Positions 604 through 57,200 of a stretch of 64,000 nucleotides of DNA are shown one piece after another. This DNA comes from Stylophora pistillata. Its lineage: Eukaryota. Position numbers and translations under genes: made by a program. The stretch spans positions 133,906-197,905 of the forward strand of contig NW_019217917.1 in NCBI RefSeq assembly GCF_002571385.2. The letters run 5' to 3'. The notes beneath the pieces are model-generated. The model made no database searches and was not told where the DNA came from. It worked only from the letters and a program-made list of their open reading frames with translations. Each line of letters begins with the position of its first letter. Positions within the stretch are counted from its first letter, which is position 1.

Positions 604-686
604 GATTAAGTATTTTTATAAAACGAAAGCTATTGTGCGCCAGACGTAACTGTAGATTGCTAGAGTGAAGCCGATTGCATCAAGCC

Positions 687-3600
687 ATGCCGAATCATCT
701 CAACCTAGAGGAGTGCTACGGATTCCTCCACGTTGAAAACCAGTCTCGTCCAGGAGCGTCGAAACGCATCGAAAAATACCTTAAAATTTCTCGAGAAGGC
801 CTGGACGAGTTTTTGATTCGATTCCCAGAGATCATTCGAAACGAAGATCAATTGTTTTACATCGTGCGATTCATGAGGGCGCATGGAAAGTTTGACGCGC
901 AAGATCACGAAAGAATTTTCAACAATAACCTGTTTACCACCATGGAGAGGAAAGTAACGGAGCTACTCACTGTTGTGGAGCAAAAGGACCCGCACACGTT
1001 TTGGTATTTGACACACGCTCTGCAGTCAAAACATTCCCCTTTGTATGACCATCTACATGGACCTTTAAACTGTTGTGGTAGGTAGAAGATTTGAACTTGC
1101 GCGCCGCTTTTAAACGTCCATCATTTATTCCCTTGCCTTTGTGATGAATAATTTGAATTTGAAATGAAAAACGTCGTAGGCACTTTGTAATACTTGATTC
1201 TTATTGTTTGTTTGTTATGATCGTAGACAATAATTATGATTTGATTTCTTGCTCTCTATCTTGCTGATTTCCCTGTGATCGAGATTCTCTGAATCTGTTT
1301 TCAGTTTTGCTGTTCGGGGAAAACCCCCTCTTGTTGTTTTGCGACCCAGTGTTTTCACTGTTCAATTCTGTATTCGTCAAAAGCTGATATTTTTTGTTTT
1401 GACAACCAAAACAAAATTGATGGCTAAACGGAAAAAGGTTGTGTTTGATGGCGATATTCCCACTTGACCGATGTTAATTGTCCGGGGAAGCCCCTTTCAA
1501 TACTGCACGTGTTATTTCTATTTTTATCGATGTTGTAATCGGGTAAAAATTCCTCCACGAAGTCACTAGTAAGGCTTGTTTCAAACACTGGTCTTTGCGC
1601 AGGCCGAAATAAACTCCCGTTTGGACCAAAACAAACTAACGATTTTCGGTGGTTTTCTCTAGTTCAGTGTCTTAATCAGAGACGTGAAAAAAACGGCTGT
1701 TCGAAACTCGAAATTACCAGCCTAGGCAGACGGAAATAACAGCTTTGTTGTTCCTAATAGAAACCGCAGTTCTAGACTGTTTTAGGCGCCGAACGTTTCA
1801 TGCAGTCAGTCGGAGTTATTTGGTTTGCTAAGGCCCAAGAGAACATAAACTAATCTTCTCAGACTAAAGCTAACATTCTCTTGATAAGAAATGAAGCCCC
1901 GGTTGCACACTGTAAGAAAATGGATATCTTTCAGAGGGGAAATCTTTGTTTAGTGTCTCATCCCTTAGCTTGGTAACACACAGCTGTTTGACAAGGTTCA
2001 CCATAATATTTTTTATTGCAGTGTGTAAAGAAATAAAACAGAGAGAGAAAGAGGAGGAGTTACATTTCTCAGGTAAGATGAAGATATGATTTTATTTTGC
2101 CTGCGAGTGAGGCGTTGCTATGGAAAGATGAAGCCGAGGAACGGTAAGGGGAGGCGGTGAACGATGAAGCCAAGTAAGGGTGGGGGGGTGAAAGATGAGG
2201 CTGAGAGAGGGTGGGGGGGTGAAAGATGAGGCCGAGAGAGTGTAGGGGGGGTAAAAGATGGAGACGAAAAAGGGTGGGGGGTTTAAAAATGAAACCGAGA
2301 AAGGGTTGGGGGAGCACGGGGAGTAATGGAGGTGAATCGGAAACATGAAGTTTCTTTTCGTCAGTCTTAATCATAATTGAAGGACACTACAGTTGATAAC
2401 ATACTGCGAAAGAATCGATCCGAAATGAAATGCTTGCATTTGCAGATTTAGAGAATGAAGGCAAAATAGTAGTCCCCTTACTTAAAGCTTTGTGTGAAGC
2501 AATTGAGGACAAAGTCTCCACAGGAAGATCGTTCATCGAAAATATGAGAACTGCGAGGCGAAGTGAGTTCCCTAAATTCTAGATGCATGGCAGAATAATA
2601 ATAATATACTGTTATGGCTTGTTCATTTTCGATTGACTTCAGTTCGGGAGTATGCGTCGCATGTGTCTGGTGCGCTATCGATATGAAGGGTTTATCTACT
2701 ATGATATCAGATTGAAATAATCAAAGTGGCGTCGTATGCTCTCCTGAATTCATGTAATTTTGCGTTGTTATATCGTGTGTGATTGTCTTTGGAAACTGAA
2801 TCCGTGACGACTCTTTCGCGCGCACCTTCCCGCGTTTGAGATCTCTCACGGGTGGCTCTTTTGATATTTCGTTCGTCATGATTTGTTGTAGTCTTTGGCT
2901 TTTTCAGAAATGCCAAAATACATTCTACAAATGTGAATTGAGATATTATTACTGTCTCATTTTATTTTATAGGAAAGAAAGGTGGAGATCTCGCAATGGA
3001 CCGAGCTACCGCTTATCCTGTGGAGGATGTTGTGGAGCCTGAGGACGAAGACTACATTGATGCAGAGGAAGGTTAGCGAGGAGGAAATTTCTCCTCAGTT
3101 GGCTATGCATTGATCATTGGAAGCTTCAACATCTACTAACTTGCACTCCCCAATACGACACCTGCGATGTAGGGTTATCAATTTACCTGACAAAATAAAA
3201 TAGTCTCTTTTAATAATAATAATTAAAAAAATTTATTATTTATATTGCGCAAATTAACATGTGGATATGATCAAATGCGCATCACAACACTTTTCGGGGG
3301 ACTTTGGCCGGACTGCATCAGCAGTTTACAAACAATTGAAGGAAACTTATTTGAAGATGNNNNNNNNNNNNNNNNNNNNNNNNNNNNNNNNNNNNNNNNN
3401 NNNNNNNNNNNNNNNNNNNNNNNNNNNNNNNNNNNNNNNNNNNNNNNNNNNNNNNNNNNNNNNNNNNNNNNNNNNNNNNNNNNNNNNNNNNNNNNNNNNN
3501 NNNNNNNNNNNNNNNNNNNNNNNNNNNNNNNNNNNNNNNNNNNNNNNNNNNNNNNNNNNNNNNNNNNNNNNNNNNNNNNNNNNNNNNNNNNNNNNNNNNN

Positions 3601-26600: not shown

Positions 26601-29600
26601 AAGTTACCAAAAAGTCTGGAGACAAACTAAAACTTCACGTTTCCAGAAAGATCTCGGGAAAACCTATGGCTTGTGAGTTCAAGGTATGGTCATCTGGTAA
26701 TGATTTTAGATGAAACGTCTGCAGATAAAAAGTGATGCTTCAAAAAAAATTGTTACGGGCTTGGTACAAAGAAGAAGAAACAGGTCGAGAATTCTAACCA
26801 CAGCCAGTTTCGATATCTTTTAGGTTTATGTGTTGGGAAAAAAAATTCACAAAATTATTGACTTTTTTCTCGTGACTCCAAATTTTCTTACAACTCAAGT
26901 CTTGGGTCCATGAGCTCAAACAATGATTCCTCTCTGGCTGATTCGAGCTCTGATCTCTGTGGCAACAGATTCACTGGGTACGGCCTCTTTATGCCCGAAC
27001 TCTTTAAAATTGTTGCTGTATTTTTATTACTTGTCGCTTTCTGGCGTCAAATGAACACTGATACTGTGAAGCGTAGCTTTAAGCACCCTCTTGCGTTGGA
27101 CTTCCCCCAGAAGGTGAACCTTCCTGGAAGCCACATTAAGTTACAATTATAAAATATCGAATTATTTCATATTTTTTTTTCTCGCTTCTGTTTCAGCCCA
27201 CGAGATACACTGACTCCGAATCTGACACAGTTGTACTAAGACGCCTCTCACGTGGTAATGGCGACAACCGACTGTCACTCGTATCAAATGACAGCTCAAT
27301 ATCTCGTGACTCCAAATTTTCTTACAACTCAAGTCTTGGGTCCATGAGCTCAAACAATGATTCCTCTCTGGCTGATTCGAGCTCTGATCTCTATGGCAAC
27401 AGATTCACTGGGTACGGCCTCTTTATGCCCGACAGGCATCGAACTCCAACTACCTTTTACAGCCCTTCGTCTGACACTCAATTAGAAACAATCATTGCTG
27501 ATGATTGGCCGGAGGTAGGGACTGGGAACGATTCTCAGACTTCCACGGACGCAAAGGAAAGCGATTCGCATGACCACAGCACTCTAAAACCCAACATTCG
27601 GTCGCCAATGAACCGAAAATTTGTCAGCACGTCGCAATTGCAGTCGGGAACGTTTTTGACGCCGATGGGTGCAGACGGAACATTAGTTCGGGCCCAGTCT
27701 ACTATCACTGCCGTTCGGGTGGACGATGATGGATTGACTTCGAACTTAACGAGATCCTCTACTTGTGGAACGACTGTTCCTTTGGGAAGAAGGTAATCAG
27801 AATTAAGATCTTCTACGAGTCAGACCCTCTACTCCTAAAAATGCTGCATGCAACAGTCAAGTGTGAAATTTTTAGTCAAAACTGTCTGTGAATCCCTTAT
27901 GGTTGGGCTCAGAAAGCAATTCTACGCTGTGAAGGACCGAATGTTTCACTCGTTCCTTTAAAAAGGTTATATTGAATTATAGTCGGGTATTAGTAACAGT
28001 AGCTGATTGTTAAAGATGAAATTGTAATTTAGAATGGTAAATAACGGTCTTCATCATCACCATCATCATCTTTAATAGTAACATCCTCGTGAGGTTTTTC
28101 AGAAACTATTTACAAACTTTTTACAATTTATAAATCATAAATAACGATAAAACTCATGGTCAGAATTTAAGATAGTATTCCACCAAGTTCTAGAGCTCAT
28201 AAAGGAAATTTCTGCCTCAATAGTGTGTCTTGCAGAGGGCGCTTGAAAGATCCCAATGAGGCATTTTGCCTAAGTTCTTTATGCAGAATTTTTTTCGCAA
28301 AACGTTTGTTGCACAAACCAGTAACAAAAACAGATCTTAGCAGTCAGCTTGTCACGACCAGAAAGAATCGCGTTAAAATTAACGAAGGTTACGGGTGCAT
28401 TTTTTTTCAAAGGAGAGATAGCTTACTTTTGTATGTTGCTCACTTTCACCTTGTCAACCTCAAGAGTGAAAAATAAATTTCTTCATACAATGTTCATTTA
28501 TTTTCAAGCAAAGAGTGACCAAAGGAGAGAAAACTATCACTTCGGGTAAATCATTTGATTTCGCACTGCATCTAATCAAAACTCTAACCAAATTCTCTAA
28601 CGTGATTGGTTATCACCAGCCCGATTTGAGTACTAATAGGACAGGGTACGCGTCAAGCTTGCAATAGTCCCTTTTGCAGTTGTGGGCCTGGTGGCCAAGC
28701 CTTTGAACAGGAGTGAGGCTAAGGGTGACCCTGTTGTGATAGAGACCTGTATCTAGTTAGCATGATAACAAAGTAATTTGCATTTGAAAAGCAGCAACAT
28801 CTCTATCATAACAAGGTCACCCTTAGCCTCACTCCTGTTCAAAGGCTTGGCCACCAAGCCCACAACTGTAAAAAGGACTATTGGACAGTGTAAAAGGAGA
28901 GTAAAAGGGATAGTTAATACGTCATATCTGTGTACGTGGACAGTACGCGTCATGTGCGCCCGCTTTTGCCGTGCATTTCGCCGAGTGAATTGTTGTTGTT
29001 TTTATATTTAATGAAAACGTATAACCGATGTCTAGTTTCTTTCTCGAATTTTGTCATAGTTTTGTTTAATTGGTAACAGAACTTCGAGTCGTCCGATTCT
29101 GTCTGCAATAATACTCGTGATAAAAAAAAATCGGATTCTCGCCTCGCGGTTGTCCGATTTTCTTTATCGCTCGTATAATTACAGAACGAATAGTCCATTT
29201 TACAGTTGTGTGCTTGGTTGCCAAGCCTTTGAATGGGAGTGAGGCTAGGGTTGACCTTGTTATGATACAAACCTCGCTGCCTTACAAATGTAAATAACTT
29301 TGTTATCATGCTAAGTAGATACAGGTCTCTATCACAACGAGGTCACCTTCAGCCTCACTCTGAATCAAAGGCTTGGCAACTAAGTACACAACTGTAAAAT
29401 GGCCTTTTGGACTCCCACTCGTTCGTATTACCAAGATTCATTCTCACATCTATTATAAGAAATGTAAGACAGACAGTGGGGGCAATTGTTGTTTTCTAGA
29501 TCTTGGGAATAAAAAAAAAGTTAATAACCAATGTCACTTGATTCTTTCCAGTCCTCGTGTAATGCGCTTCGAGAAGAAATCGTTGGATGATCTCGGAGTA

Positions 29601-32146
29601 GAAGTGTCTGGTGGTTACCGCATTGGTATTTACGTCATCGAATTACAAGAAAACTCAATCTGCAAGGCCGCTGGCCTCCAAGTTGGAGATAGGCTGCTGA
29701 AAGTAAAAAAGATGATGAATTTTTTTTTTCTCCTCCCTTTTGTAAGGTGGTGTTTTTATTTGACAATTTTTTTCTTTACCAGGATGGCTTAACTTCGTAT
29801 GTGAAATCTATGTTTACTACCACAAACACACAATATTTATCAGGAAACTTGTGACCAACATTGTGGAAACTCGTTACATTTAGAATTATCGTCTGGAAAA
29901 ACTAAACAGATATAAATGCAAGATTAAAAAAATTACTAAAATAAATGCAAAAGTGAATAAGCAAAATAATGAAAAAAAAAAAAAAAACATCAAAAAGTAG
30001 ATTTGATGTCAGTTTTATGTTTGCCAGGGAAGATTTACTTTATTGCCTTGAATCAAAAAGAAACCTCGACAAAGCTTTGTTGCTATATGAGCTCAATTTT
30101 AACATAACTGTTTGACCCCTCCTACTCATCAGCTCAACAGTTACGATCTAACCAGAGCAACCCTGGATCACGCTACACGGATTGTTCGTCTTTTACGCAC
30201 CTGCACGTATATCAGAATCGAGGCTCAACAAGTCTTAAGTAAGTCTCGCATAACATCCATGATTTTACTACTATTTAAGGCCGTGAAACCCTCTTCTAAG
30301 TTCCAACTCAATTTTTGTAGAAGTTTCAGCTGATTTGGAAGGGCCCGTTTCTCGAAAGTCCCGGTAACTTAACGGGCCCGTAAAGCTTTTTTGTTTTCAT
30401 TCAAGATGGTGATTTCAAAAGTTTTGGAAATGATACAATGAAACTATCAGCTAATGAAACAGAAGGGACTGGTTTGGGCGCCAGCACCTGCTTTTTTATT
30501 CTTGAAATTTATATTTTAAAACATGGCTTGGGGCCCGTTAAATTACCGGGACTTTCGATAAACGGACTCCAGGTCCGGGATGGCGACGAAAAGTCCGAAA
30601 AACTCGATAATAATTTTCACAACTGTCTGAAATGAACTACTGTAAACCAGTAGCCACAATTGGGAATAAAATTTACCGCCACACAAAGCTTGATGATGCC
30701 TCTGAGCTCTTCAAATGACAAGTTTCTCCAGTGAACATCTCATGCTTTCCTCATTCTTACACGTTTCTCACACAAGCATCCGTCCTGGATATATAGGGCA
30801 GCTTGATCCAATTTATTGTCGTTCTTTTAGTTTAAATTCTTAAATCGTCACACAAGTTTATGTTTTTCTGTTCAATTCTAATTAAGCGATTATTCTTATA
30901 TTAGATTACGAGGAGATCCTCGGAGACAAACCTTACGATTCACTTTATGTTAGGTGGGTAAATTGATAGCGTAGTAAAATACTTTTTAATGCATGAAACG
31001 ATTAAGCTTTTAAATATCCTTAGCTGGTTTAATAGTAGGACGACCGAAGTGGGGTAAAATTACGAGAGCAAATCACGCTGCTGGGAGCCAATCAAATAGC
31101 GTGATTTTGAAATGGTTGTATCTAATGACAGTATTTCCCTCACCTATCCACGCTGTCGATGTAGGAATTCCCAGTTGGAAGGAGTTGCTTGACATTTTAA
31201 GTTCAAGGTAACGAGATCAAAGATTCAGTAGAAGTATGCAATTAGTTAGCTGATGATTTAAAGGGGTTTAACTCAGATCTTTTTTCGTACAGGACAATTC
31301 ACCCATATAAGGCAATGGCTCCAGACGAGCTAAGTTTTACTGTTGGAGAAACATTGCACGTGATAAACACGCGTGCAAATTACGACCAGGCGAGACAAAG
31401 CTGGAAGTGGGTGGCTCAGCGTGCCAGGAAGGACGGGAAGGTTCTTGAGGAAGGACTGGTGCCCTGCATGGGAAGGTAAACAGAATTGATTATCTCACTT
31501 ACAAGAATGCAAGCCAAGAGTCAATGGAAGACTGAAGGCAACCTCAAATGGTACATGTAGAATTGTCTTCCTTTAAATTGGTGGCAACCTGGAGTAATAA
31601 CGATTTTTTGACAATTTAAATTGGCTGTGTCTACGTGGAAGGAATAACTGGCCTATCAAGAAAAAATTGTTAGGGAAGAAAGATAGGAAGATTTGGTGTA
31701 CGGTTAGGAAAAGTAAAACAAACCATTATGGATTAGGATACAAGAAAAAAAAATTATGATTAAAAAAAATATATATATCTATTCGGGGAAATTGATTTTA
31801 AATTTGACATCAGACGCAATAGTAGTTTTCATTCTCATCTAACTTGCAGAAGCAATGATTTACATCTTCCTCGCGTGCATACCAATTGGGGCAAGCAAAC
31901 TTTCATTTATCAAGCCTCTAAGGACTGGAAAAACTTAGACAATGACATTAAATACAGCAAATCATTGTCCCTCTTTAAGGCAAAGCTTAAAAGTTTGTAA
32001 CTAATGCGCTATCTCATTGTTGCGTTATTTAAAATTAATTTAATATTGTTATATCAATTTTTTTTTCCCTCGGTAATTTTATTATTTGCGGGACCCCACT
32101 GAAAACCGCCAAGGCGATTGGGCTCCCTGGATAAATATCATCATCA

Positions 32147-42200: not shown

Positions 42201-45200
42201 GCTTAATGACCTCTGTTATTATTTGTGGTTACTTTTGCCTTCCCTAACGACTGCACATACTTCAAACTAATTGGTTTAATAAAATTGACCGACATAAACA
42301 CAGTCGTTGCCTCTAAGACGAGCCTTTCCATGAAATTTGTTTTTCCTTTATTATTAGGATCCCGCTTACAGCAATGTCAGGGACGAGATTTTCACATCAG
42401 GTAGGCTATTGTACCTTTGTTTGACTTACAATGGGGCTAACGAGTCTGGAAAGGTTCGTTAGATCCCTTGCTGATTACTTCAACGTATGTCCAATTTAGT
42501 TTGTGAGCGAAACAATAGAAACATGTAGGATGAAAATGCATTATAACAGCCTAGAGCTTCTTAAACATATTTTCAGGAGTAAATCATCATAGAAAAGTAG
42601 GAATGTAGGCGTTGCCATCATTTCTTACTGATGACGGTTGCACCACCGATTGTGCAAAGGTATAGATGAATGGCTTCGTATCTACGCTAGTCGCTTCCGA
42701 AAGGCCACCTTCTAAGCTCTCTGTCAAGTACAGTGGCGGATCCAGACACTTAGTTAAGGGTTGGGGGGGGGCTTTTTGTTTGTGTGTGTACACTTGCCGC
42801 TTTTTCTTCTCTCGGCGTATATATTTTTACCCAAATAAATGGGGGGGGAGGCTTTCTAAACCATCTCTAGGTCCGCCACTGATATTGTCGGTATGACCCG
42901 TACGGTTTCAAATAGAGCTGAATGTCTTCAAGTTTTTTACTCTGTAATCTCCAGAGGTCACAACCTCGTTCCCAGGGTCTCTCATCTTCCCGTCCCCCGG
43001 AGCGTGCTCGCTCCAGGGGGCGGGAAGATGAGAGACCCTGGGAACCAGATTGCAGAGGTCACTTCTCTGTACTGCGACCATTAAAATAATTCGTTAGCGT
43101 GTATAACTCTGCATCAACTATACCATTTGCTGCTAATCATATTCCGCCACGAGATTATGACACCTGATCATGGGTTAGTTCACTCATCCTCTATACCTGT
43201 ATCTTTTTCTGAGCAAAATGGCGAGCGATCGCGCCAAGATTTTGCACCGCTCTAGGATCCGGCGAAAACATTCTGACTCATCTCGTTCCTCTGTTCTGTC
43301 TTCCTCTTCCCATCACTTTTCATGTTTTTCTCTACACCGTGTGCGCTACGTTTGCCTTTTTCCCTTTGTGCCCTTCACTGTGAATCCTTACTTGTACTCC
43401 CCTGCCGGGCTGGTCCCGAGAGACCGATTATCCTTTATTAGAAGTATCCTCCACTGATGGCTCACTTATAGATTTCCTCTGCCTATTATCAAGTTCATGG
43501 CTTATATCAACTTCCTATGTGCTGATGCTACCCAAGCAGAATCATCATAATGATTACCGCACACTTTATTTGAGATTAAAGGCGCAGGAAGTGTGCTTTT
43601 GAAAAATCTTCTTGTGTTCTCGTTTCTGTTTACTCCGTTTTATTTTACCTTGGTGTCTATTACACAAAAATAAAGTTCTTAATTCGATGGTAATTTTGCA
43701 CTACCATATTTAGAACGTTTCCAATGTTAAGATGAACTACTCATAATCTTACGATTTTTATCCAAGGTATCGAAGAAGACCTGGAACTGCAACCCAAACC
43801 ACCCGTGACACTGAAGAAGTCAAGTCTGGAGGATGTATATGATGTCCATGCGGAAATTGGAAAGTAAGAAACAGTGTTCTCATAGGAAAATGTTATCACT
43901 TGATAACATTAAGCGGGAACAGTAAAAGTTTTTCCTTTTGTACATCGGTAAAAGACTTTCCTTCTAAGTGACATTATCCACTCAAAGGAGCACTTTTCAT
44001 TCAAAAGGCAGAACTGGGAAATACCCAGCGATGGACTAGTTTGCCACCCCGAGTATCTTGAAGATTCATTTCTGTAACCAAAAAAATCATTTTCCGACGT
44101 GGTGGTGATTAGGTAAATGTGTAACATCTTGTTTCTCCTCGAACAGAGGGAAGTTTGGTGTGGTGAAGAAAGTCACAGAACGTTCCTCGAAGACCACGTT
44201 CGCGGCCAAACACATTCGGCTCAGCTCAGCTGGTAGTGGTTCATCGCGAGACGATATCATGCGTGAAATTGATATAATGAACAAGCTACACCATAAGAGG
44301 CTTGTGGGATTGGTTGATGCATTTGATACGTCCACGAATATCGTCATGATCATGGAATTGTGAGTATCAAAACAGGGCTGGATTAAGATAACTATACAAC
44401 ACTTACAATTTCCATAATTTCCATTAGGGAATCCTTAAAACTAGCTTAAAAAAAAAGAAAATATGGAAAGAATGTGGTACATCGGGAGGAGAAAAGTGAA
44501 CTGATATGATTAATTCACGAATAGATTAAAATGATGGCTATCTTTTTCCCTCTATTTCTTCCTATTTTGAGGAGCTGGTAACAGGATTTTGGAACGCCCT
44601 GTGAAAGCTTCCTTGCTCAACATTTTTTTTTTTGATTTGCACCTTCAGTCTCCTTCTCAAAATTGATTCAGTTAGAACTTCAATCAGCAGGGTTTAATTA
44701 AAGAGTAATTTTAAGATTTAACTTAAGATTAATTGAAGTCCCAAGGTATATCTTATGATAATTTTAGTTTTTATTTTTTTTTAGTGTGTCTGGAGGTGAG
44801 TTATTTGAACGAGTGGCGGATGCCGATTGTCTGACAGAGAGAGAAGCTTCCTTTTACATGTACCAATTACTGCAGGGTCTGCAATACATGCACACGAAGA
44901 ATATTGTGCATCTAGATCTAAAGGTAGGAAATATCTTGAGGTAAAGCTTAAAAAGGAAAAACGTCCTGACCAGAAGATAAAAACGGTCCCACCTTCCTTC
45001 TACTTGCTAACGCAGAAGGAAATGTTACCAAGTAACCTATAGATACTACCACTTATTTCTTCCCCATACTAACCTATATGTACCATTACTTAAATAAAAG
45101 TTAATTTGAATCAGTGTATACAGATATCAAATTTGTACTGTAAAAGATAAATTGTGTCAAAAACTAAGTAGTTTGAGATGCACGAGCCATGAGTTTCCAA

Positions 45201-48200
45201 TAGTGACGAGGAGCTGATTTTAAGGGTGCCAGAAGATCCAACTGAACGAAGAGCTACCTCAGTTTTGTACTAATAAACAATGTGAGGGCAAATGCTTCCA
45301 AAACTTCCTTGTTTTTCTTTTTTGCCGCAGCCTGAAAATATCGTCTGCGTCAGCAAGGATAGTTGGGACATCAAACTTATCGACTTTGGCTTAGCACAGG
45401 AGCTCGTGCCAGGGGTCCGAATGACTGCACTCAAGGGAACCCCTGAGTTCATGGGTAAGTTTTCTCCACCATGTCCCTTTACAACTCACACATCCTACCG
45501 AATAACACCAATCAAAGTTATTCGAGAACAGCACCTTTCTTTCCAGTCATCCTTATTTTTGTTTCTGTTTAGTTCCCTACCTGCTTATGTTTGTATTTTG
45601 CTTAAATTTTTGCTAGTTTCTGTTTGCTTCTTCAATTGTTTTTTTATTTAATGTTTTTCTTTTTTCATTAGCCCCTGAAGCAGTCAATTTTGAGCCCATT
45701 TCATTGGCTACTGATATGTGGTATGTAATTAAACTTATCTTAAGTGATCACTCACGCCTCGTCGTATTAAGGGAAGAGGCCATAAGTTTCCATTATTTCC
45801 TTGGTTAAAATAAAGGGAAATTAATCAATGTGACCAATTATCACAGTGAATGCAGTGTAGTTATGCACTACAGCAAAAATGAAGCAAGTCACTAAAATTC
45901 AGAAAAAGGGGAACGTTTACTTAAGAGTGCGAATACCAGAAAAGAAAATCTAGAAAAGATTCGCGCCTAGTCCAGGAATATTATTCAGGATCACTTGCTT
46001 GTCGTTATGGAGACTTTGGTTATTTAGCGACTTCGATCCTGGGCCAGAGATGGAAACCACTGGAAGGTACTTTTAAAATTAAGAGTACAAGTTTTACGAG
46101 TATCCAATAGTCTTTCTGGTAAGACTACTCCCTATTTTTCATAAAAAGTAATGAAGTTCTTTGTATTATGTTTTAGGAGCGTTGGTGTTATAGCTTACAT
46201 CCTGTGAGTATCTCGTAATATGAAGTTTTTTGTAGGTGATTTTGCGGCTTTATATAGATATAACTGGTGCACTAGGGTATTGAAGGTCTTCTTCACAAAC
46301 GGCTTGTTCTTCAAGAAGAGTGGTCTAAATTTCGTTTGTTCATCATTTGCGACCCATGTTTTAATCTTGTTTATCTTTTGTCATCGCTGTTTTTTTGCTT
46401 ATTATTACGTCATTGCATTCTTAACTAAAACTCTTGTTTCGACGCAGAGAAAGATTCAAAATAGCATGTTTTCGTGAGTCCCTTCGTTATCTGTTTAAGA
46501 AATTGGGTCGTTCATTTTCCCGAAAAAGAAGAAAACGCAAAACAAAACAAAAAGGACATTAGCCAGGAACATAAAAGTGCTGCGAACAGTAATGCAATTT
46601 GTGTTTGGCAACGCCAGTTAGGTTAACCAAGACCCTATTTCAAACCCATATTGCGGTTATGCGAATCTACAGCAAAATTGATATTTTGATTTTATTTAGT
46701 CTAAGTGGGTTGTCACCTTTTCTGGGAGAAGATAACAATGAAACCCTAGCCAATGTGACTGCTGTGGAGTGGGACTTTGAAGATGAGAGCTTTGACGTCA
46801 TCTCCGACGAAGCTAAAAATTTTATAGCTCAACTATTGGTAAAAAGCAACAGGTATGTTTAGTTACAAATTTATTACGTCTCTCAATAGCTTGACATTCA
46901 AGTCTCTATAGAGGTTTTGCACAGCAGCCATGTTGGATGGCAGGAACAATGAATATATTTTGCATACGAAAGAATTTTTTCCCATGGGTAAAATAATCTA
47001 TTGTTCCTACCATCCAACATGGCTGCTGTGCAAAACCTCTATACGAGCTCTCATAAAGCACCGATTAAAAAACACTTCACTATCTTCCAAAGTACTTTCG
47101 TTTTATTCAGAACAAGCTTAGCTTTGTGAACCTTAATTATCTGGCTGGTCAAGATTCAATGCAAGGCGTGACAATTGTGGACGTCATCATTTCCTGAACA
47201 GTTTAATTTTTCTACCTATGCAGCACAACATTATCCATGTTACTTATCTATTCACTATTTTGAAACTTCAGAAAAAGGAACACAGTCAAACATAGTCTGG
47301 AGCATGAATGGATGAAGGTAACTGATGAATTTTACAAGCAGTTTTAAAAATTAATGAGCCATCGAATAAAATTCTGCATAATCATCTTTTTGATGTTGGA
47401 ATCAGCAGCGGTGTGTTTTAACCCCTTCAACTTCCTGTTCAAAATTAATGATTCTCCTGTGGGAATTCCGTACGTTTCCTCGTACGATGTTTAGTAAACT
47501 CATTGTTGAATCAAATGACCACCTAAAGCTGATTTTTTTATTTCAATTTCACCCTCTTGTTTGACAATGCAAGTGGCATAATAAGTTGTTTCATGATCGC
47601 AGCTGAACGTAAAATGGTTTAAAAGGCAGAGTTCAATCCGCGGTGGTCCTTAAGAGCAAAAAGATTGTACCGTCCATATATAGCCCAAAGTTGGTTTATT
47701 TTCAAACTGCTAAGTGATTAGTAGAGTAAAAATAAATAAATAAATGAAATACAAGTGAAGACAATTGTAGCTAAGAGCGGTTTAATCAATGCATAAAAGT
47801 GTAGATCATGAATCTCCCGTGATGATCAATGACTGACTGATTGATTAACTTATTGATTATATGTTTCATTTTCCTTATGTTTCATTTTCCTTATTTCAGA
47901 AAAGTGCATCAGCAAATGCTGTCAAAATAGACACCAAGAAGCTAAAACAGTTTTTAGCAAAACGAAGGTGGCAGGTGAGAGACTGGTAGACGCTCCCTAA
48001 CGTTCTAGATGACATTGTTACAGAAGCTTTAGGTCAACAAACCATATTATCTTTTGCACTTCACTCGAGTCGGTGCTGTTTTGCTCGGGTAGATAAAGAA
48101 CATGAAACCATCCCCACTCAGTCCACAGTTTTCGTGTTCAGTGGCTGAACAAACGTCTCACAAAACATCTCAAAATTCTGTTTTTGTCCTTGGATTAAAA

Positions 48201-51200
48201 TTTGTTTTATTTTTATTATGTTGCTCTATTCTTTTCACATTGTAATAACCATGAAATATTAATCAAGCAATAAATGAATGATTACTAACATTGATGATTT
48301 GACGTGATTTGCTAACTCTTAACAACTAATAATAATCAATAATTTGAAATCAATACTGCTAATTAGATACTTGACAATGAATGTTACTAAATTTAATCGA
48401 TTATCTAAAGCACGTTTCTTTGATTAAAATGTACAGGTTCATTTTTATAACATTCATCTCTCAGTTAATAACTCACCCATAACAACTCCGTTCTCGACGT
48501 CTGAAAATAGTACTATGATGAAAGTCCAAAATTTTTGGCCACACATGCACAATATGGTAATTCAAAGCAACAGCATTCGTCTAAATTAAACTAACTGGCA
48601 CAGTACTTATGTGGTAAACATGGGCACTCGCAACCCACATCACGTCAATGAAATCTATACATGTACTCACAGATTCCCTTCTTAAGCGAAAGTGCCAGTC
48701 ATTCAAAGATGCTGACTGAGGATGAAATCCTCGAGGTTAGTCGAATGTGGAATCGTCAAATGTCGTCATGGTAACAGACGTGTTGGCTGCCCGTGTGTTT
48801 GCACTGGTTCTACTATGTACCGTCTATTTATCAGAGCTTCTATGTCTAAAGTTTGCAGTAGGATAAAAAAAATCCTACAAAGTCTGCTTTATTTCTGTGA
48901 CATGATTTCGCTCTTACATAGGTTGACTTTCTTTTCCACTGCTTACTTTTACGGAAGGATTCTTTGTAGTGGTAACGTTNGGACTATTTTAACTAATGGC
49001 TTGAAAAGGGAGGCGAGAAAATTGATCAGAATTTACATCAGGGCCATGTTCTGCCTCCCTAAAACTTTTGTTTGCATCTTCAGAACACTGAAAAATTTAC
49101 TTTCAGAGGCTCTGGCGATTCAGTTCTGTTTATGGCTCCATGGATAAAGTGAATTTTGTTATGAGTAATTTTTTCCTGTAAGCAATTTGTGAGAATTACT
49201 GACCTATGTAGGCTTGGAATTTTTAATCCAAAAGCACTCCCAACATGGGTCTCGAATGTCAAGTAACTTTGATTTGTTTTCCTTTTAGAAATCTGTGAAC
49301 GCACTAAAAGCAGTCCGTCGATTATCCACATTGTCATCTCTCATGAAAATTAAAAATCGTCCTTCGATTGCGCCGTCGTTACCAACTCTTCTTTCCTCCA
49401 AGGAGGATGTTGAAGATACAACTGGCAATGATGGAATTCGTGAAGAAAAAGGTGAAGATGAAGCTGGCGAAACTACCAACGAAGAATATGTATCAAAAGA
49501 GGAGGCTCACGAGGAAAAGCCGAAAGGCAAGTGTATGAGAAATCTAGCACTTGATAAACAAAATAAGTGGACTAATTTAACCTTTTGCCGGCTTATTGAC
49601 CAACGGACTAACGACGAGCGAGTTAAATGACTAACTAGTTTAATCAACCGTGGAATTACTAATCACTGATTTACTGGCTTGAGAAGTGTTTGTGAGACTA
49701 ACTGACTGTCTGATTGACTGACAACTCCGTGAGCGGCTAAACGAGCGAGTGTGCTAGTGGGCGAGCGAATGAGTGATCGTGAAGAGGTGAACGAGGAAAT
49801 GAATGCTTGCCTTCGTGCGTGCCTTCGTGCGTGCTCCGTCATTCTGTGAGTGATTCAGATGGTGAGTGAGTGGGTGAGTAAGCGAGTCAAAGTTGACTGA
49901 CCATGTAGCTTACCGAAAACCAAAACTGTTTCTTGAGTAAGTGAAGGACTGATTGACTGACTTGATAAGAAACTTACTACGTATGATGCACGATCCTCGC
50001 AGTAGAGCTTACTGATAGGCTCACAAATAAACTAACATGTCGCTGACAAGGCTTGGATTTGATTTAATTTGATTGGAAGTTTAAAGTTTACTGTAGAAAA
50101 TAAGTTTATTGGTTGGATTTAGATCAACCTGTTGACTTGTGAATGGATTAATAGCCCTTATCGCATTTACGCCTACTGTACGAGAGCTTAGCGGACTTTG
50201 AAGTTTCGAAACGAGGCTATCGGGTCACACAGGTAAAACTTTCAAGTAAAATTGAAGCAAATGGCTACGTTTGGAGGCATTTTTATTCATTTTATTAAGG
50301 ATACAGCATGTTCTCGTCATGGTTAGACATTGTATTGCGTACGGGTGCAACAGTCTATTCAGTGAATCGGCAACTGACGAGATCCACAAGATTAGGATCG
50401 AAACCGCGGTCTTGCCAAACACGTTCAACTATCAAACTAGAGACGAACAAAACGCGCATAAAAAACCTCTCAAATAAAGAACTTATAAACGACCAGATTA
50501 ATTTACTGGTAAAAAGGCCTAAATTCATTCCAGCACCCGCTACAAAAGAAAAACAGATCAGACAACAACTATTGTGTGACTTTGATCAGTTCGCCAGGAG
50601 AATGCGTCTGATTTACATATTCCGAGGGGAGGACAAAAAACCCATCTCTACCACGTCAAATTTACAAGGATACCACCAATACAAAAATCAGTAGCCCTTG
50701 AAAGCTATTTAGAAGAGGTTAAAAGTGACTTTTCAGAAATATAAATTACAAAGCCAAAAGATAATTTGCTTCCGGCCGAACGCAAGGCGCTGAGGGCCTT
50801 GAAACGTGACTCTGATTTAAACCTCAAAAAGGCCGACAAAGGAACAACAACCGTAGTCATGAACAAACGCGACANNNNNNNNNNNGGAGAGTACTGTTGC
50901 GTAGCTCAAAATGAGGCTGGAAGAGTCACATGTGCAGGATGGTTAACAGTTGAAAGTATGCTTCAATGTCTTTCAAGTTGTCTTCCCTTCTAAGCCTGAT
51001 CGTCGAGCAGCCAAATGAAATAAGTTTTGTTAAAAGCATTTTGAATCGTATCCTACATCCTTTGAAATCTAAGAGCGCTCGAGCTTGTAGACGATAAACC
51101 CCTCCTGGGGTCTGTTTCTCGAAAGTTCCGGTAACCTAACAGGCCCGAAGCCATGTTTTAAAATCAAAATTTAGAGGATAGGAAAACAGGTTCTGGCACC

Positions 51201-54200
51201 CAAACTATTCCTTTTTGTTTCTTTAGCTGATACTTTTATTTCATCATTTTCAAAACTTTTGAAATCCCCATCTCGGGACTTTCGAGACACGGGCTCCTGA
51301 TCACCAAAGCAGGCTAGCTATAGCTATTGAAGTTAAGGACTTCAAATGAACTTGTGTTTTTCCAGTTGAAAGCATCTTGTCAGAGGATGACGAAGAAACT
51401 GAGTCAGAAGATGAAGATGAATTTGTAACAAAAGAGTTTGTTACGATCAGAGAAGGCGATGTACAAAAATTCTACTGTATCGAAGAAGAGGTTGGCAGGT
51501 ATGTTAAACGCGGGAGGGCTATACACCGAATGCAAATATGGCGGACCACTCGGGCGGACCGGGCCGAGCTGCGCGAAGTCGAGGCTAGTTAGGCCTTGAT
51601 GTGTTTTTTTTTTTTGTTTTTGACAAAGCGTCAGTAGAAACTTTAAACACTGAGCGTAGTGATGGTCATTTTCGCGATGCACATTCATTGCTGTGTCCCT
51701 GAATGTAACCAAAGAGGTGTAAAATCGCCAACGGGAGAGAAATTATCTTTTTTCGAATTTCCAAATCAATCTTTACTGAGGAAGAGATGAATTCACGCAA
51801 TCCGACGAGACGAAGGAAAACACTGGCAGATCACTAGAGACATGAGAGTTTGCTCTTTGCATTTTAGACGAGAAGATCTTAGAAAGTCGCTCGCTGGACG
51901 AACGTATCTTGTGGATGGCTGTGTACCGTCAAGATTTTCTTGGTCTGTCCCATCCCCAAGGAAAAGAAAAGCACCAACTGAAAGGCTGCCTTTGCCGATT
52001 CCCTTGACTTCGAAGAAGCACTTGTTTATATCCGACACTTCTTCTGAAGTCAAAATCGCGTCTTCAGCTGTTGAAAGTTCAAATGAAATTTTTCCCAGTA
52101 CAAGTGGAGGCAACCAAACAAATGAACCCGATATCAGTGTTGAGAGTAACGTGGAAATGGATCAAGGAAAGAAAGTCGAGGATCTTCAGGCTAGACTTTT
52201 GCAATCTGAAAAAGAGCTTGCGATCCTTCGAAAGAAGAACGAGGAACTGGAAAGAAAGATTACCGAAAAGGAACAGCACCAGGAGACAACTCGACTTCGC
52301 GCAAGTCGGCTCGGTCCGGCCGAGTGGTCCGCCATATTTGCATTCGGTGTATTAAAGGTTTATTACTGTTTATTCATTGGACTTGAACTATTTTTTCTGA
52401 AATCCTCATGCGTTTACTTTCCCGATCTATGGCCCATCCTGCTTTTTTCCAGGTTATTTGAACCCTTTTCAGGTCTTTAATATCCTTTTAAAGCTTTGTA
52501 ACCACTTCCCCCCGAATCAAATCCTGGAACTTTTACCCTTATCGCTTTGCAAAAAATTGTTATAGTCAGCCACACGACTGTTATTCACCGCCTCGTTAGC
52601 TTGTTAGAACGGGTGATCCTTGAATATTGCAGGCAAAACAAAAAAGAAAAACCCGATTTTCCAAATTTCATTTTACGCTCTGGTGCAATTGGCGAGTTAA
52701 AGCTAGTCCGTCTTTTCTGCTTTTTCTGAATTTTTTCTTCACTGACAGGACTTACTTCACCTCCGCAATCTCATTAACATAGAATAAATCTCTTCATAAT
52801 TACCCAGGGGTCGTTTTGGCATTGTTAAGAAGTGTGTCGAGCTTGACACTGCAACGAGGTTCTGTGCGAAGCTTATCAAATCGCGACCCACACAGAAGTA
52901 GGAGTTTAAGCGTGAGATTGACGTCATGAACGCTCTTCACCATCCTCGGATCATTCGACTCTACGATGCTTTTGAAGAGCCCAGGCAGATTATCCTTATA
53001 CTGGAATAGTAAGTTACCTTTTAAGAATCTTTTGCCATTGATCTTTAATTTGGCTTGCTGCTTTAATGAAGAAATAGATACTCAAGACATGAAATCTACC
53101 CTTGCCGAGCATGCCCGGTCAGGTTTATGCATATTTCATAAGTCCGAGTAGATTTGGTGGTGATGGATGACCTGCATCTTAAAAGAGAACTTTACTTTGC
53201 CGAGGGAATGGTCTGCCCAAAAGCGCGAATGTGCCTCTTTCAATCTTGATTCCTTCAATTTTCTTTCATCGATGGTTTGTCAAATTGATGCGTTGAGTGT
53301 ATCGGTCTATATTCACCCATAACTGTGGTTGAAGACCGGCACTGAAACCTCTCCATCTCCAGCGAACAAGATAGTTCGCTCGTTAACGTTCGTATGGCAC
53401 GATAGTCTAAAGTATCATTCCACAACATCCATCAAAGTGACTAGACCGTTCCAGCAGGGCGCGAAATAAACGTAAAACACTTTTTACAAATTCCTTGTTC
53501 TTTAATTCTTTAAAGAGTGATGCCCATTTGCTCTGTCTTTTACTCAGATATTTTACGAATTTTCCGGTCGCCTCCGAGAGCTTTTAAACTCTCAAGAAAA
53601 TGTGGATAACGTTGGACCACTTCTACTCAGATAATGATTTGTCTTTTTTCAGTTGCAGAGGTGGTGATTTATTCAATCGTATTGATGACGATTCCCTTCC
53701 CGAGTTCGAAGCCGTAAAAATCCTCAAACAGGTTTTGGAGGCTGTCAAGTACATGCACGGCCTCGGTTTCATGCATTTAGACTTGAAGGTTGGCATTTCA
53801 TTGTCTTTTTATCCTCCAATAAGATTTTTTCTTAAACAGCATCCCTGCTCGATTCGGAAGTCGAGTGCTCAACCAACAGCAAAACTGAGAAATCATCTTG
53901 GATCTAAGTCCCACTCTAACAAATGTCAACAACCATCTCATCGTATCCGAGCTTTATGCTATTTCACTACCAACTCTTCTATTCCAAAACTCGTCCAAGA
54001 AGCATTGCCACGGTTCTGCTTTCATTAGACCTAAATCTTTTTCCCCTTATTTTTGTCTCATTGCAGCCACAGAACGTGATGTTTAAAAGTGAAGGCGGTT
54101 CAAAAATAAAGTTGATCGATTTCAGTCTAACAAAGAAGTTTGATCCTGACCAAGAAACAAAAATATCATTCGGGACTGCTGAATACGTTGGTAATTTGAC

Positions 54201-57200
54201 TTCTAACGATTAACAAAGTCACCTCAGTTTTATAGTCTGTTTGTCTTCTTTCTTTCTTTTGTAAAACGTTCACTTTGTGTAGATGGGCCAGGGCTGGCGG
54301 GTTTTTTCCTGTCTGTTTAGTATTTATTAAGCTCTTTCCTAGTCCCCTGTTAGTAGGAACGTTGAAGAGCTCACCTTTTTATATAAAGAAGTTGCCCAAG
54401 CAAGGAAACTCGAAACTCGAAACAAGGTTGGTCTCAAAATATATCTCAGACATCGTGCCATTCTTTCCACACAGCTCCAGAAATCGTCAACTACGAGCCT
54501 GTGACCTTAGCTGCAGACATGTGGTAAGGCTTTTAGTGATAATAGTGTCAATACTAACTCATATGCGATGCGATGCGATGCGATGCGATGCGATGCGATG
54601 CGATGCGATGCGATGAGTTTAACCTTTAATTTTTTTTTTTTCAGGGCGATTGGTGTAATTGCTTATATCATGTGAGTATATGCGGTATTGGATGGGAAAA
54701 TATTATCACCAGTTGTTGAAAGCTTTAGATTGAGACCTTCAAACAGGTTTTTTTTCGGCCGGGACTTGAGTGTGTTTCTTAAATGAAAGAGTTCCAAAAG
54801 ACGACTTACAGTACACAGCTATGCTTAAAAATTTGAATTGCTTGAAGCGCTTGCTTTTACCAATCTATTCAATTGGTTAAGCGCCGGACTGTTGTGCGGG
54901 AGGTCGAGGGTTCGAGCCCCGGCCGGACCAACACTCAGGGTCTTAAAATAATTGAGAAGAATATGCTACCTTTCTATAACATCGATCAAGAAATGGTTAG
55001 ATATTCTAGTGGAGGTCCCGTCTCCTGCATCTATTAATTAGTTAATTTGGTTAAAGAACCCACTTCCCGAGATTACTGTGATGTGGTCTGGCTTGGTTAC
55101 AGGGAATTGGGGGAAGGGGGCATCTGTTATATTCACCTTTATTTGATTGTAAACTGCTTAGCAGTCTGGTAAAGCCCCCCGTACAGTGTTGTAAAGCGCC
55201 ATGAGTTCAAGATATGAGCGCTATATATATACAAGTTATTATTATATTATTATTATTATTATCATTATTATTATTATTACTAAATCAATCACTTTATAAT
55301 AAAAACTTTATTTCGATGGTTACGCGACGCTACAGAATGAGGTGTAACAGTAAATTTCCACTGTAGGTTGAGTGGCGAGTCTCCATTTCTTTGTGAGAGC
55401 GAGGCAGACACTTTCTCTCGCATTACAGATGCACGCTGGGAATTTACAGACGTGTTTGATTACGTCAGCAAGGAGGCTAAGGACTTCATAAAGAGACTGC
55501 TTCTAAAAGATCCAAGGTATCTGTTGATGTTTGATTACATTTTATGAAATTGTAACGTGACTTACCGTCACGCGACCGACATGGAACTATCTTCGCCGAC
55601 TGTAGAAGTGTCTACATATGAGCCTGCGTTCCTACGCTTTGATGAATCAATCCTTTAACTTTTCCCTTAGTGGATTGATTGTTTGGTTGTTTGCTCCCAT
55701 AACGTTTTTGTATTGTTTTGTTTTGTTTTTTTAAGTCCATGTTTTGAAAAAAATGTAAACTTCACTTTTCGCTCCATCAATGAATTAGCGAGTGATTTGA
55801 ATCTATTATCTTTCGATTGTTTTTCGAAAGCGCTTTGTTCCTGCCACTTCTTTTGTTTATTTCGTGGTGTTTGTTTTTAATCAAAACTTTTGATATTTTC
55901 TATTTTGGTAATGCACGCTTCTTACAGTATGAACTTCATCGTTATAAACTGTTTTCAAGCTCTGTCAATACCCTTTTTGTAGAAAACGAATGACAGTAGA
56001 TGAGTGCCTGGGGCATGAGTGGATCAAGGTAAATAAATTTTGATATCAACCGTGGTTAACAGAGATGTGATGTGATGTTTAATAGGCCATTTCCGAAGTA
56101 CCTTTAGCCTCTTTTTCAAAACGAGACTCAACCATTCGTGCGAAAATTAGTTTAGCTTTCCTTTGAAAGAAAACTTATAATTTTATGAAAGGATGAGCAC
56201 CGGGACTCGCTTTGAAAAAGAGGCAAATTTCGGAAATAGGCTATTAGTCACGGCTGGCACAGAGCTGCAGTAACTTATTTAGACGAACTTTCTTTAATAG
56301 GTTTAGTTCGTAATATTGCAATGCATTTAACTGTCTCTATGATGACTTTAGTCACCAGGGTTTACTGGAAAACGGAAAAGCAAAATCTCCTCAGAGGTAA
56401 GTCGGTAAACAAAAATAATTTGAAGTTAATTTCGCTTTCTCTCATGTTGTTGCTTGTTTTGTTGCTGGTATTGTTTCTCCTTGAGGTTAACCTAAAGTAT
56501 TTTATTAAAACCTAAAGTCAATTCCTTAATGTAAATGTTTATTCGGTTGTTCTTTTCTTTGTTCCTTCACTACTACGCCTATTTGTCTTTCAGTCTGTTA
56601 TTCCATTCTTCCCTTCTATTATGTTCGTCCGTTCGAACGAACCTTTACTTTTGAATTTTATTTTCCATTTTCCCTATTTTTCTCAATCAACGACTTATTA
56701 ATTGCAGGGTGAGTTGACTATCGACCAAAACTCAAACATCACATCCCCAACAGAACTTATGAGACAAGGTAATTATCGTTATTGGATTCAGTAGCGTGTA
56801 GATTGGTTGACAGTGTATGACGTTGGGTTATGATCTATGATTATGACTCTTATAAAGAGTAGTGTCTCACGACTAAAATATGTTTTCTATTTCGATGTCT
56901 GTAATTTGTTAAAACCTCTTAGTAGGTGGTAATCAACTATTCTGATTTTTTTAGAGGCCAAAAATATTCGAACCATTGGCCATAATCCATGGTCAAATTT
57001 AAAGATCTTTTCAATCCATGTTCCAAGCTAATGCCATGCTTCCATTGGTAAAGTTTTAAAAATTTCCTCCACGCATGTTATACGAAAGTCTCTTCGTCTC
57101 TACAGAGAGCGGAAAGTCTGAACAAGAGTTACCATTGGATCCAAGGAAATTAGAGTCTAAAGTTAAGTCACTACTATCAAAGTTACAAAACGCCGAAAAG

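Follow-up and report, generated by a model that had tools for sequence, protein, structure and literature searches.

Host gene, intron and assembly gap

The window, i.e., the whole 64,000-nucleotide stretch of Stylophora pistillata DNA analysed here, contains a host gene with two kinase modules on the forward strand. An intron between these modules carries a hammerhead ribozyme motif and is interrupted by an assembly gap. The host features around the motif are as follows.

43769..47318, + strand: exons of host kinase module 1
49289..49526, + strand: host exon upstream of the hammerhead intron (basic segment after kinase 1, acidic linker; GC donor)
50875..50885, no strand: assembly gap of 11 N, expected to hold the right end (about 237 bp) of the inserted element termed family A below, host intron and exons
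50886..50955, + strand: 3' end of a host exon (presumed Ig-like motif, in frame)
51366..56029, + strand: exons of host kinase module 2

Pfam Pkinase was matched by six of the eight exon pieces tested, on both sides of the intron, which gives two kinase modules. We assume that this two-kinase gene resembles myosin light chain kinase. An earlier note had placed the hammerhead in the intron that separates the kinase modules; the kinases do flank it, but this intron is one of several between them. It opens with a non-canonical GC donor (AAG/GCAAGT, 49527-49534). The exon at 50886..50955 contains Y-x-C-x-A-x-N, which we take to be an Ig-like motif, within 20 amino acids that have no Pfam match.

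A contig of polyA RNA from run X12 (depth 54.9) consists of 49289-49526, 560 nt that are absent from the assembly, 50886-50955 and 51366-51499, and its loose ends match neighbouring exons. Both kinases are spliced into one mRNA in this sample, and the 238 + 560 nt preserve the reading frame across the hammerhead intron; as the RNA samples come from other individuals than the assembly, this splicing is silent on the effect of the element if those individuals are insertion-free. A DNA contig from run X2 reaches 1028 nt leftwards of 50886. The gap thus hides at least 1.2 kb, these 560 exonic nucleotides included. Neither the linker exon nor the coiled-coil exon retrieved a homologue when host proteins were searched. 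No Ig-like frame was seen in L111 and L131, two small contigs that contain the right end of family A.

Several other features of the window were observed. The next kinase intron contains a second inverted-repeat element (51521-52352) with 63-nt arms that are 94% complementary, AT at both outer ends and part of a THAP domain (E=0.0005). A short form of this element family is suggested by a contig that skips 51541-52332. A hairpin-like repeat with a sub-threshold MIR400 match in a kinase 1 intron (46921-47030) is probably another small inverted-repeat element. Rfam matches to MIR400 and snR55 in the window were far under their thresholds. An exon of kinase 2 is interrupted by an in-frame TAG (52899-52901), where RNA reads A at 52899 (26/26 and 2/2) and DNA contigs read A or G; an assembly error or a rare allele is the probable cause of this stop codon. 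Upstream of the kinase gene, one or more other genes have coiled-coil exons, around which Pfam gave a weak match to CARD (E=0.0085) and a match to PDZ (E=1.3e-6) in window 669-1082 and 29559-29714.

The hammerhead motif

One further feature lies in the intron.

50369..50416, + strand: minimal type I hammerhead (from sequence, Rfam and script), predicted cut after C50411

Sequence and script both give stem I as GGCAA/UUGCC (50369-73/50412-16). The core consists of CUGACGA at 50374-80 and GAAA at 50400-03, stem II (GAUCC/GGAUC) has 5 bp with a 9-nt loop and G10.1-C11.1, stem III is the palindrome ACCGCGGU at 50403-10, and the cleavage triplet GUC occupies 50409-11. Every part of the earlier description (intact sense hammerhead, paired stems I and II, palindromic stem III, GUC at 50409-50411) is thus present. 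With its CUGANGA / GAAA / UH core and its stems I and II, the motif has the make-up of the minimal type I hammerheads of Penelope-like elements (PLEs), and the same 66 bp recur in free PLE copies, as expected for an origin in the PLE repeat or 5' region.

Rfam Hammerhead_1 matched 50371-50414 with 24.3 bits (E=0.031), under the gathering score of 34. A generic hammerhead descriptor run on both window strands found a single site, 50369-50416, and exact matches to the core pattern numbered 92 in the 398-Mb genome, compared with 0 to the control. Together, these two results exclude a chance origin of the motif.

The motif is carried by an ISL2EU-derived inverted-repeat element

The hammerhead in the window sits within an element of ~960 bp with fixed ends, inverted repeats and an A|AT|T target, which we call family A. 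The window copy is made up of the following parts.

50150..50152, + strand: target-site remnant A + AT, left copy of the inferred 2-bp duplication (A|AT|T)
50153..50227, + strand: left terminal inverted repeat of family A, terminal 16 bp AGCCCTTATCGCATTT exact
50153..50350, + strand: left shell, ISL2EU-derived and absent from free PLE copies (tblastx to the PLE-free sister L134)
50319..50354, + strand: start of a THAP ORF, MVRHCIAYGCNS, cut off by the PLE segment
50351..50874, + strand: Penelope-like segment (5' UTR piece, hammerhead, N-terminal ORF piece to VVMNKRD; no RT)
50414..50416, + strand: GCC microhomology at an internal deletion of ~850 bp (compared with the long forms L052 and L106)
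50414..50874, + strand: broken piece of the PLE N-terminal ORF with the family motifs GLKF and KKADKG

A DNA search with the element returned 220 candidates, 40 of which were scored, at 90-96% identity. Nearly all scored copies start at window 50150, and most of 29 other loci end ~960 bp further on in the reverse complement of the left end; left and right ends have ~74% inverted similarity across ~78 bp. The genome contains at least 59 family A copies. AAT was found at 26/39 left ends and ATT at 30/39 right ends of the copies with both ends, which are the two-ended loci retrieved by then and may include a few mis-paired ends. Target duplications of 5-8 bp, beyond AAT/ATT, were found in 0/38. 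One copy lies inside a Gypsy-type RT of which two paralogous empty sites read AATT, in contrast to AAT...ATT at the filled site. An automatic search for empty sites among the retrieved family A loci found none, nor did a pattern search for an empty version of the L057 site. The latter locus (L057:318-415) is a 98-bp family A derivative that consists of the ends alone, inside a SWIM-type ORF, and its flanks fit A|AT|T.

A|AT|T is the target given for ISL2EU by Han et al. 2015 (PMC4482050). Family A agrees with it in target and AT duplication, as read from one insertion and its two empty paralogues. In the window copy, the right end and its flank fall into the gap, and its own duplication is judged from the other copies. 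The terminal inverted repeats also fit ISL2EU, except that they open with AG and not with the usual GG.

The coding remnants of the shell point the same way. On the opposite strand, the right shell encodes a 46-residue peptide that is the start of a SAP ORF, and two PLE-free sisters (L134, L136) carry the same two ORF starts as the family A shell. In L134, the THAP product starts with MVRHCIAFGC and contains a full THAP domain (E=1.1e-15). A near-intact ISL2EU element of 4.4 kb with ends AATAGCCCTT (L112, 354-4763) encodes THAP, HTH_Tnp_4, DDE_Tnp_4, SAP and YqaJ in convergent SAP-YqaJ and THAP-HTH-DDE ORFs, and its transposase and YqaJ are matched by L138, L140 and L142 (tblastn). The shell is thus what would be expected of a derivative of a two-ORF element with THAP-HTH-DDE plus YqaJ. 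An autonomous partner with identical repeats was not found in the genome; L112 shares just the first 10 terminal letters, AATAGCCCTT.

The closest shell relative of family A is a gapped record, L146. L146 / L192 represent a PLE-free close relative of the right shell; across 2 kb of this stretch, a run of eight A recurs about every 47 bp, a pattern that resembles a record artefact. A free PLE copy was considered as the carrier of the motif and rejected: the shell is ISL2EU-derived, with fixed ends, inverted repeats and A|AT|T.

The Penelope-like cargo and its parent

Free PLE loci match family A in its PLE part alone. Free parent copies are organised as hammerhead, N-terminal domain, RT and VRAKL-stop; their 3' end is fixed, and their 5' ends are truncated to varying extents. 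The parent RT matched RVT_1 at E=0.00026, below the cut-off. No GIY-YIG domain was found in the frames viewed or by Pfam on four ORF pieces, with a 2.2-kb gap in L171; endonuclease loss inside EN+ PLE clades is known (PMC8557442). The parent family (L091-L108, L167, L170-L172) is interspersed. Each unit has one hammerhead. As it lies ~450 nt behind the usual 3' end, the motif is missing from most truncated parent copies. Several PLE copies and captures begin 23-49 nt ahead of the core, and hence upstream of where the ribozyme would cut. The marks of a canonical EN+ PLE insertion (RT with GIY-YIG, tandem or inverted pLTR, variable 5' end) are absent from family A.

The PLE ORF next to the hammerhead had been called broken. 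Stops and a frameshift are indeed present, but the ORF ends just before the RT throughout the family. The whole N-terminal PLE ORF is retained in two 1.8-kb family A forms, L052 and L106, and the deletion at GCC removed everything 3' of stem I, which leads from the 1.8-kb form to the 960-bp form. At its right junction, the PLE segment overlaps by a short AAAATTTT run.

These structures suggest how family A may have arisen. A PLE copy would have come to lie just inside the THAP gene of an ISL2EU element, by retrotransposition or gap repair. A first deletion would have fused the PLE ORF to the SAP end, giving the 1.8-kb form, and a second, at GCC, would have produced the 960-bp form, if the events occurred in this order. 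ISL2EU transposase acting in trans would then have spread the family by cut-and-paste, with no RNA step, and one copy would have landed in sense orientation in the kinase intron. Every counted family A copy keeps the shell upstream of the cut site; as RNA cut by the ribozyme would lose it, we count this in favour of cut-and-paste.

Alternatively, the window copy could be an ordinary PLE insertion, partly tandem or inverted, with its remainder and a second pLTR hammerhead in the gap and with inverted ends made by the PLE itself. Tandem and inverted layouts do exist among the free parent copies (L171, L167, L172, L175), and the gap is large. However, the inverted repeats do not consist of PLE sequence, a parent unit contains a single hammerhead, and the window copy has the left shell of family A and its specific GCC deletion, with 22/725 differences. 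We regard this origin as highly improbable. Inverted ends made by PLE insertion are ruled out for family A, as its ends are not PLE sequence; they fit another copy, L080.

The gap had also been suspected to hide a partner copy of the hammerhead, which is not what the family leads one to expect. A second motif was found in 0/63 locus-strands that carry the family A hammerhead, a count in which overlapping loci recur. Other copies also lack a hammerhead in the ~237 bp by which the window copy is cut short at the gap. Any unrelated hammerhead that might lie there would need the same palindrome. The count of 0/63 likewise sets family A apart from non-LTR retrozymes, which are tandem units that each carry a hammerhead.

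The same hammerhead segment occurs in three shells

The core matches were classified by carrier (91 of the 92, eight of them assigned by hand from alignments): 42 belong to family A, 35 to a family B, 4 to a family C and 10 to free PLE copies. Inverted-repeat shells hold 81/91 hammerhead copies, or 78/88 if three loci that show the motif twice across an N gap are assembly duplicates.

Family B elements (e.g., L085:1083-2638) are 1556 bp long, with ends AG..CT and TTAA flanks (25/28 left ends, 19/20 right ends), and are young (median divergence 1.5%). TTAA duplication and RR..YY ends agree with the definition of Kolobok in PMC9587614, and by TTAA and terminal letters the family B shell appears Kolobok-like. 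It contains an internally deleted PLE that ends at the natural 3' end of the PLE, as expected of a retrotransposed insertion. In family C (L079, L071, L173), with ends TACGGTGGCCC, 20-bp subterminal tandem repeats surround the same hammerhead.

The three shells share PLE sequence alone, joined at different points, so the three captures of the hammerhead segment look independent. A broader proposal would be that DNA transposons, and not retrotransposition, are the main amplifiers of the solitary Penelope hammerheads of this coral: an endonuclease-less PLE would repeatedly enter unrelated shells (ISL2EU, Kolobok-like and a third) via breaks made by transposases, which would stand in for its lost endonuclease, and cut-and-paste would then spread the 5' segment with the hammerhead. 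We put this forward tentatively, as an idea that may well prove wrong.

Predicted folding and the fate of the ribozyme

In ViennaRNA predictions, the active monomer fold has a probability of ~1e-4, and the minimum free energy structure of two copies is a double hammerhead (-33.5 vs -25.2 kcal/mol for two monomers). The short palindromic stem III is thus computed to favour the dimer over the monomer, and the earlier view of a Penelope-type minimal type I hammerhead with dimeric preference agrees with this computation and with PMC4209133. In the local context, the predictions do give stems I and II (pair probability 0.6-1.0), so that the scaffold is available, which counts against reading the motif as inert. 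A lone hammerhead such as that in the window is predicted to be nearly inactive as a monomer. This is in line with experiments: in PMC4209133, a single PLE minimal hammerhead showed no detectable in vitro cleavage and dimers cleaved little and slowly, and a review (PMC6765202) agrees. Slow intronic ribozymes left splicing unaffected (Fong 2009, as cited in PMC10919898).

In 59 copies of family A, 86/2240 ribozyme letters (3.8%) differ from the majority, vs 1715/42611 (4.0%) elsewhere; an earlier set of 48 copies gave 4.1% vs 3.7%, or 3.0% vs 3.2% at non-CpG positions. Some loci were retrieved via the core pattern, which biases the sample towards conservation, and conservation is still absent. 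Judged by these counts, the ribozyme decays neutrally in family A. The hammerhead is fully intact in 28/58 scorable copies, and as it mutates at the background rate, its intactness is a coin flip and no sign of function. The window copy is typical of its family, its 22/725 differing letters being measured against the family majority.

For an effect on the host gene, two readings had been offered. In the first, cutting at the hammerhead would act as a regulatory isoform switch, with kinase 1 and Ig-kinase 2-coiled coil as the separate products of the split pre-mRNA. The sense orientation, the intact core and the position between two kinase modules speak for it. However, a cut leaves the 5' piece lacking polyA and the 3' piece lacking a cap, and such pieces usually decay. 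In-frame, full-length splicing across the intron was observed, the monomer fold is disfavoured and the family offers no partner, and half of the family A copies are intact by chance under neutral decay. A sense copy in an intron is also expected by numbers, with more than 6000 type I motifs in Acropora millepora (PMC7229834). Although an intronic ribozyme can reduce mRNA output (Cpeb3; PMC10919898), we find the switch scarcely credible here.

In the second reading, the insertion would be mildly deleterious, as occasional cutting, by a protein-assisted monomer or by a dimer with sense RNA of another copy, trims the host mRNA. The dimer is energetically favoured, 92 genomic copies have the core, and host factors have been proposed as helpers of PLE hammerheads (PMC4209133). 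Against this, trans partners would be diluted and the intron short-lived, and dimers cut slowly in vitro (PMC4209133). RNA reads bear on it as well. Two stranded raw-read runs were analysed, with about 2% of reads examined; the public runs that contain the region include several labelled coral metagenome. First mates fall on the minus strand in host exons, whereas reads over 50455-50808 are ~10:1 on the plus strand, so RNA that matches the family is mostly antisense to the ribozyme. This roughly tenfold antisense excess could reflect loss of sense copies, but it equally fits a few expressed copies or a promoter of the right-end shell ORF. At several private positions, zero reads have the letter of the window copy. 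No pile of read ends was seen at 50411, which weighs little either way as the libraries are fragmented and no read stems from the window copy. Overall, we consider a mildly deleterious effect distinctly unlikely.

The preferred reading is that the hammerhead is passive cargo of a ~960-bp non-autonomous ISL2EU/PLE element. On the fold predictions and the family alignments this is very likely: the motif is alone and dimer-dependent, it is predicted to be too slow to affect splicing, and this copy is probably neutral.

Placement of the insertion

A related question is whether the element is absent from the intron in most colonies, as a private allele, or was misplaced by the assembly. Contigs from X1, X2, X7 and X8 stop at ~49995-50005, in a very high-copy 30-bp repeat, the element is followed by the N gap, and among the listed contigs of six runs, none has a piece over the spacer 50008-50149. 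Cover is absent over 50069-50147 in four runs and private alleles of the window copy are absent from DNA contigs, but both were set aside, as contigs drop rare variants. However, the assembly is unbroken over 48981-50874, the spacer is single-copy, and contig holes prove nothing. We think that absence or misplacement is unlikely, if somewhat less so than a mildly deleterious effect, and it is compatible with the identity of the element as passive cargo. The 30-bp repeat remnant itself (49978-50007) occurs at thousands of times single-copy depth and is abundant in RNA.

Comparison with known systems

For the host gene, the insertion probably has no consequence. In ribozyme surveys, solitary PLE-type hammerheads are usually taken for truncated retroelements or for candidates in gene regulation. 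Here, 81/91 copies of one motif were multiplied in DNA transposons and the ribozyme bears no sign of selection, and so copy number and intactness are uninformative on function. The three captures also provide a testable hint on the integration of endonuclease-less, interspersed Penelope elements.

A hammerhead inside a DNA transposon is not described in the literature searched; Repbase, Dfam, subscription journals and supplements, where such families may be catalogued, lay outside this search. PLE hammerheads are already known, with thousands in one coral (PMC7229834), as are ISL2EU elements and Pack-TIRs (PMC8277862). The hammerheads of Cervera and De la Pena 2014 (PMC4209133) share with the window motif the full core, the short stem I, the palindromic stem III, the predicted dimer dependence and mostly solitary copies. 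There, solitary hammerheads are ascribed to truncated PLEs, whereas the window copy lies in a DNA-transposon shell without a pLTR. Non-LTR retrozymes (PMC7229834; bioRxiv 10.64898/2026.07.22.740005) are likewise non-coding, non-autonomous, PLE-related and found in corals with a type I hammerhead. Unlike family A, which is single and bounded by inverted repeats and does not conserve its ribozyme, they are short tandem repeats that are cut to unit length and are mobile as RNA. The HDV-like ribozyme of Cpeb3 (PMC10919898) is also a self-cleaving motif in a sense intron; its monomer cleaves in 2-3 min and is conserved, in contrast to a motif that is predicted to be inactive alone and appears to decay neutrally.

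On the transposon side, family A shares with ISL2EU/PHIS elements (PMC4482050) the A|AT|T target, the inverted repeats, a THAP start at one end and a SAP/YqaJ-type start at the other, with coding relatives in the genome. It differs in being non-autonomous, in its AG instead of GG start and in an interior replaced by PLE. CMITEs (PMC2872659) are linked to piggyBac and differ from family A. Similar to multicopy Pack-TIRs and Pack-MULEs (Tan et al. 2021, PMC8277862), family A has a foreign insert between inverted repeats, breakpoint microhomologies and amplification to distinct target sites, although cargo derived from a transposable element may not count under their definition. Unlike Pack-TIRs, its dozens of copies carry the ribozyme-bearing 5' end of another transposon and not host sequence, and this cargo may have entered by retrotransposition. 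What is unusual is thus not the host gene, but the presence of the same hammerhead segment in three unrelated inverted-repeat shells.
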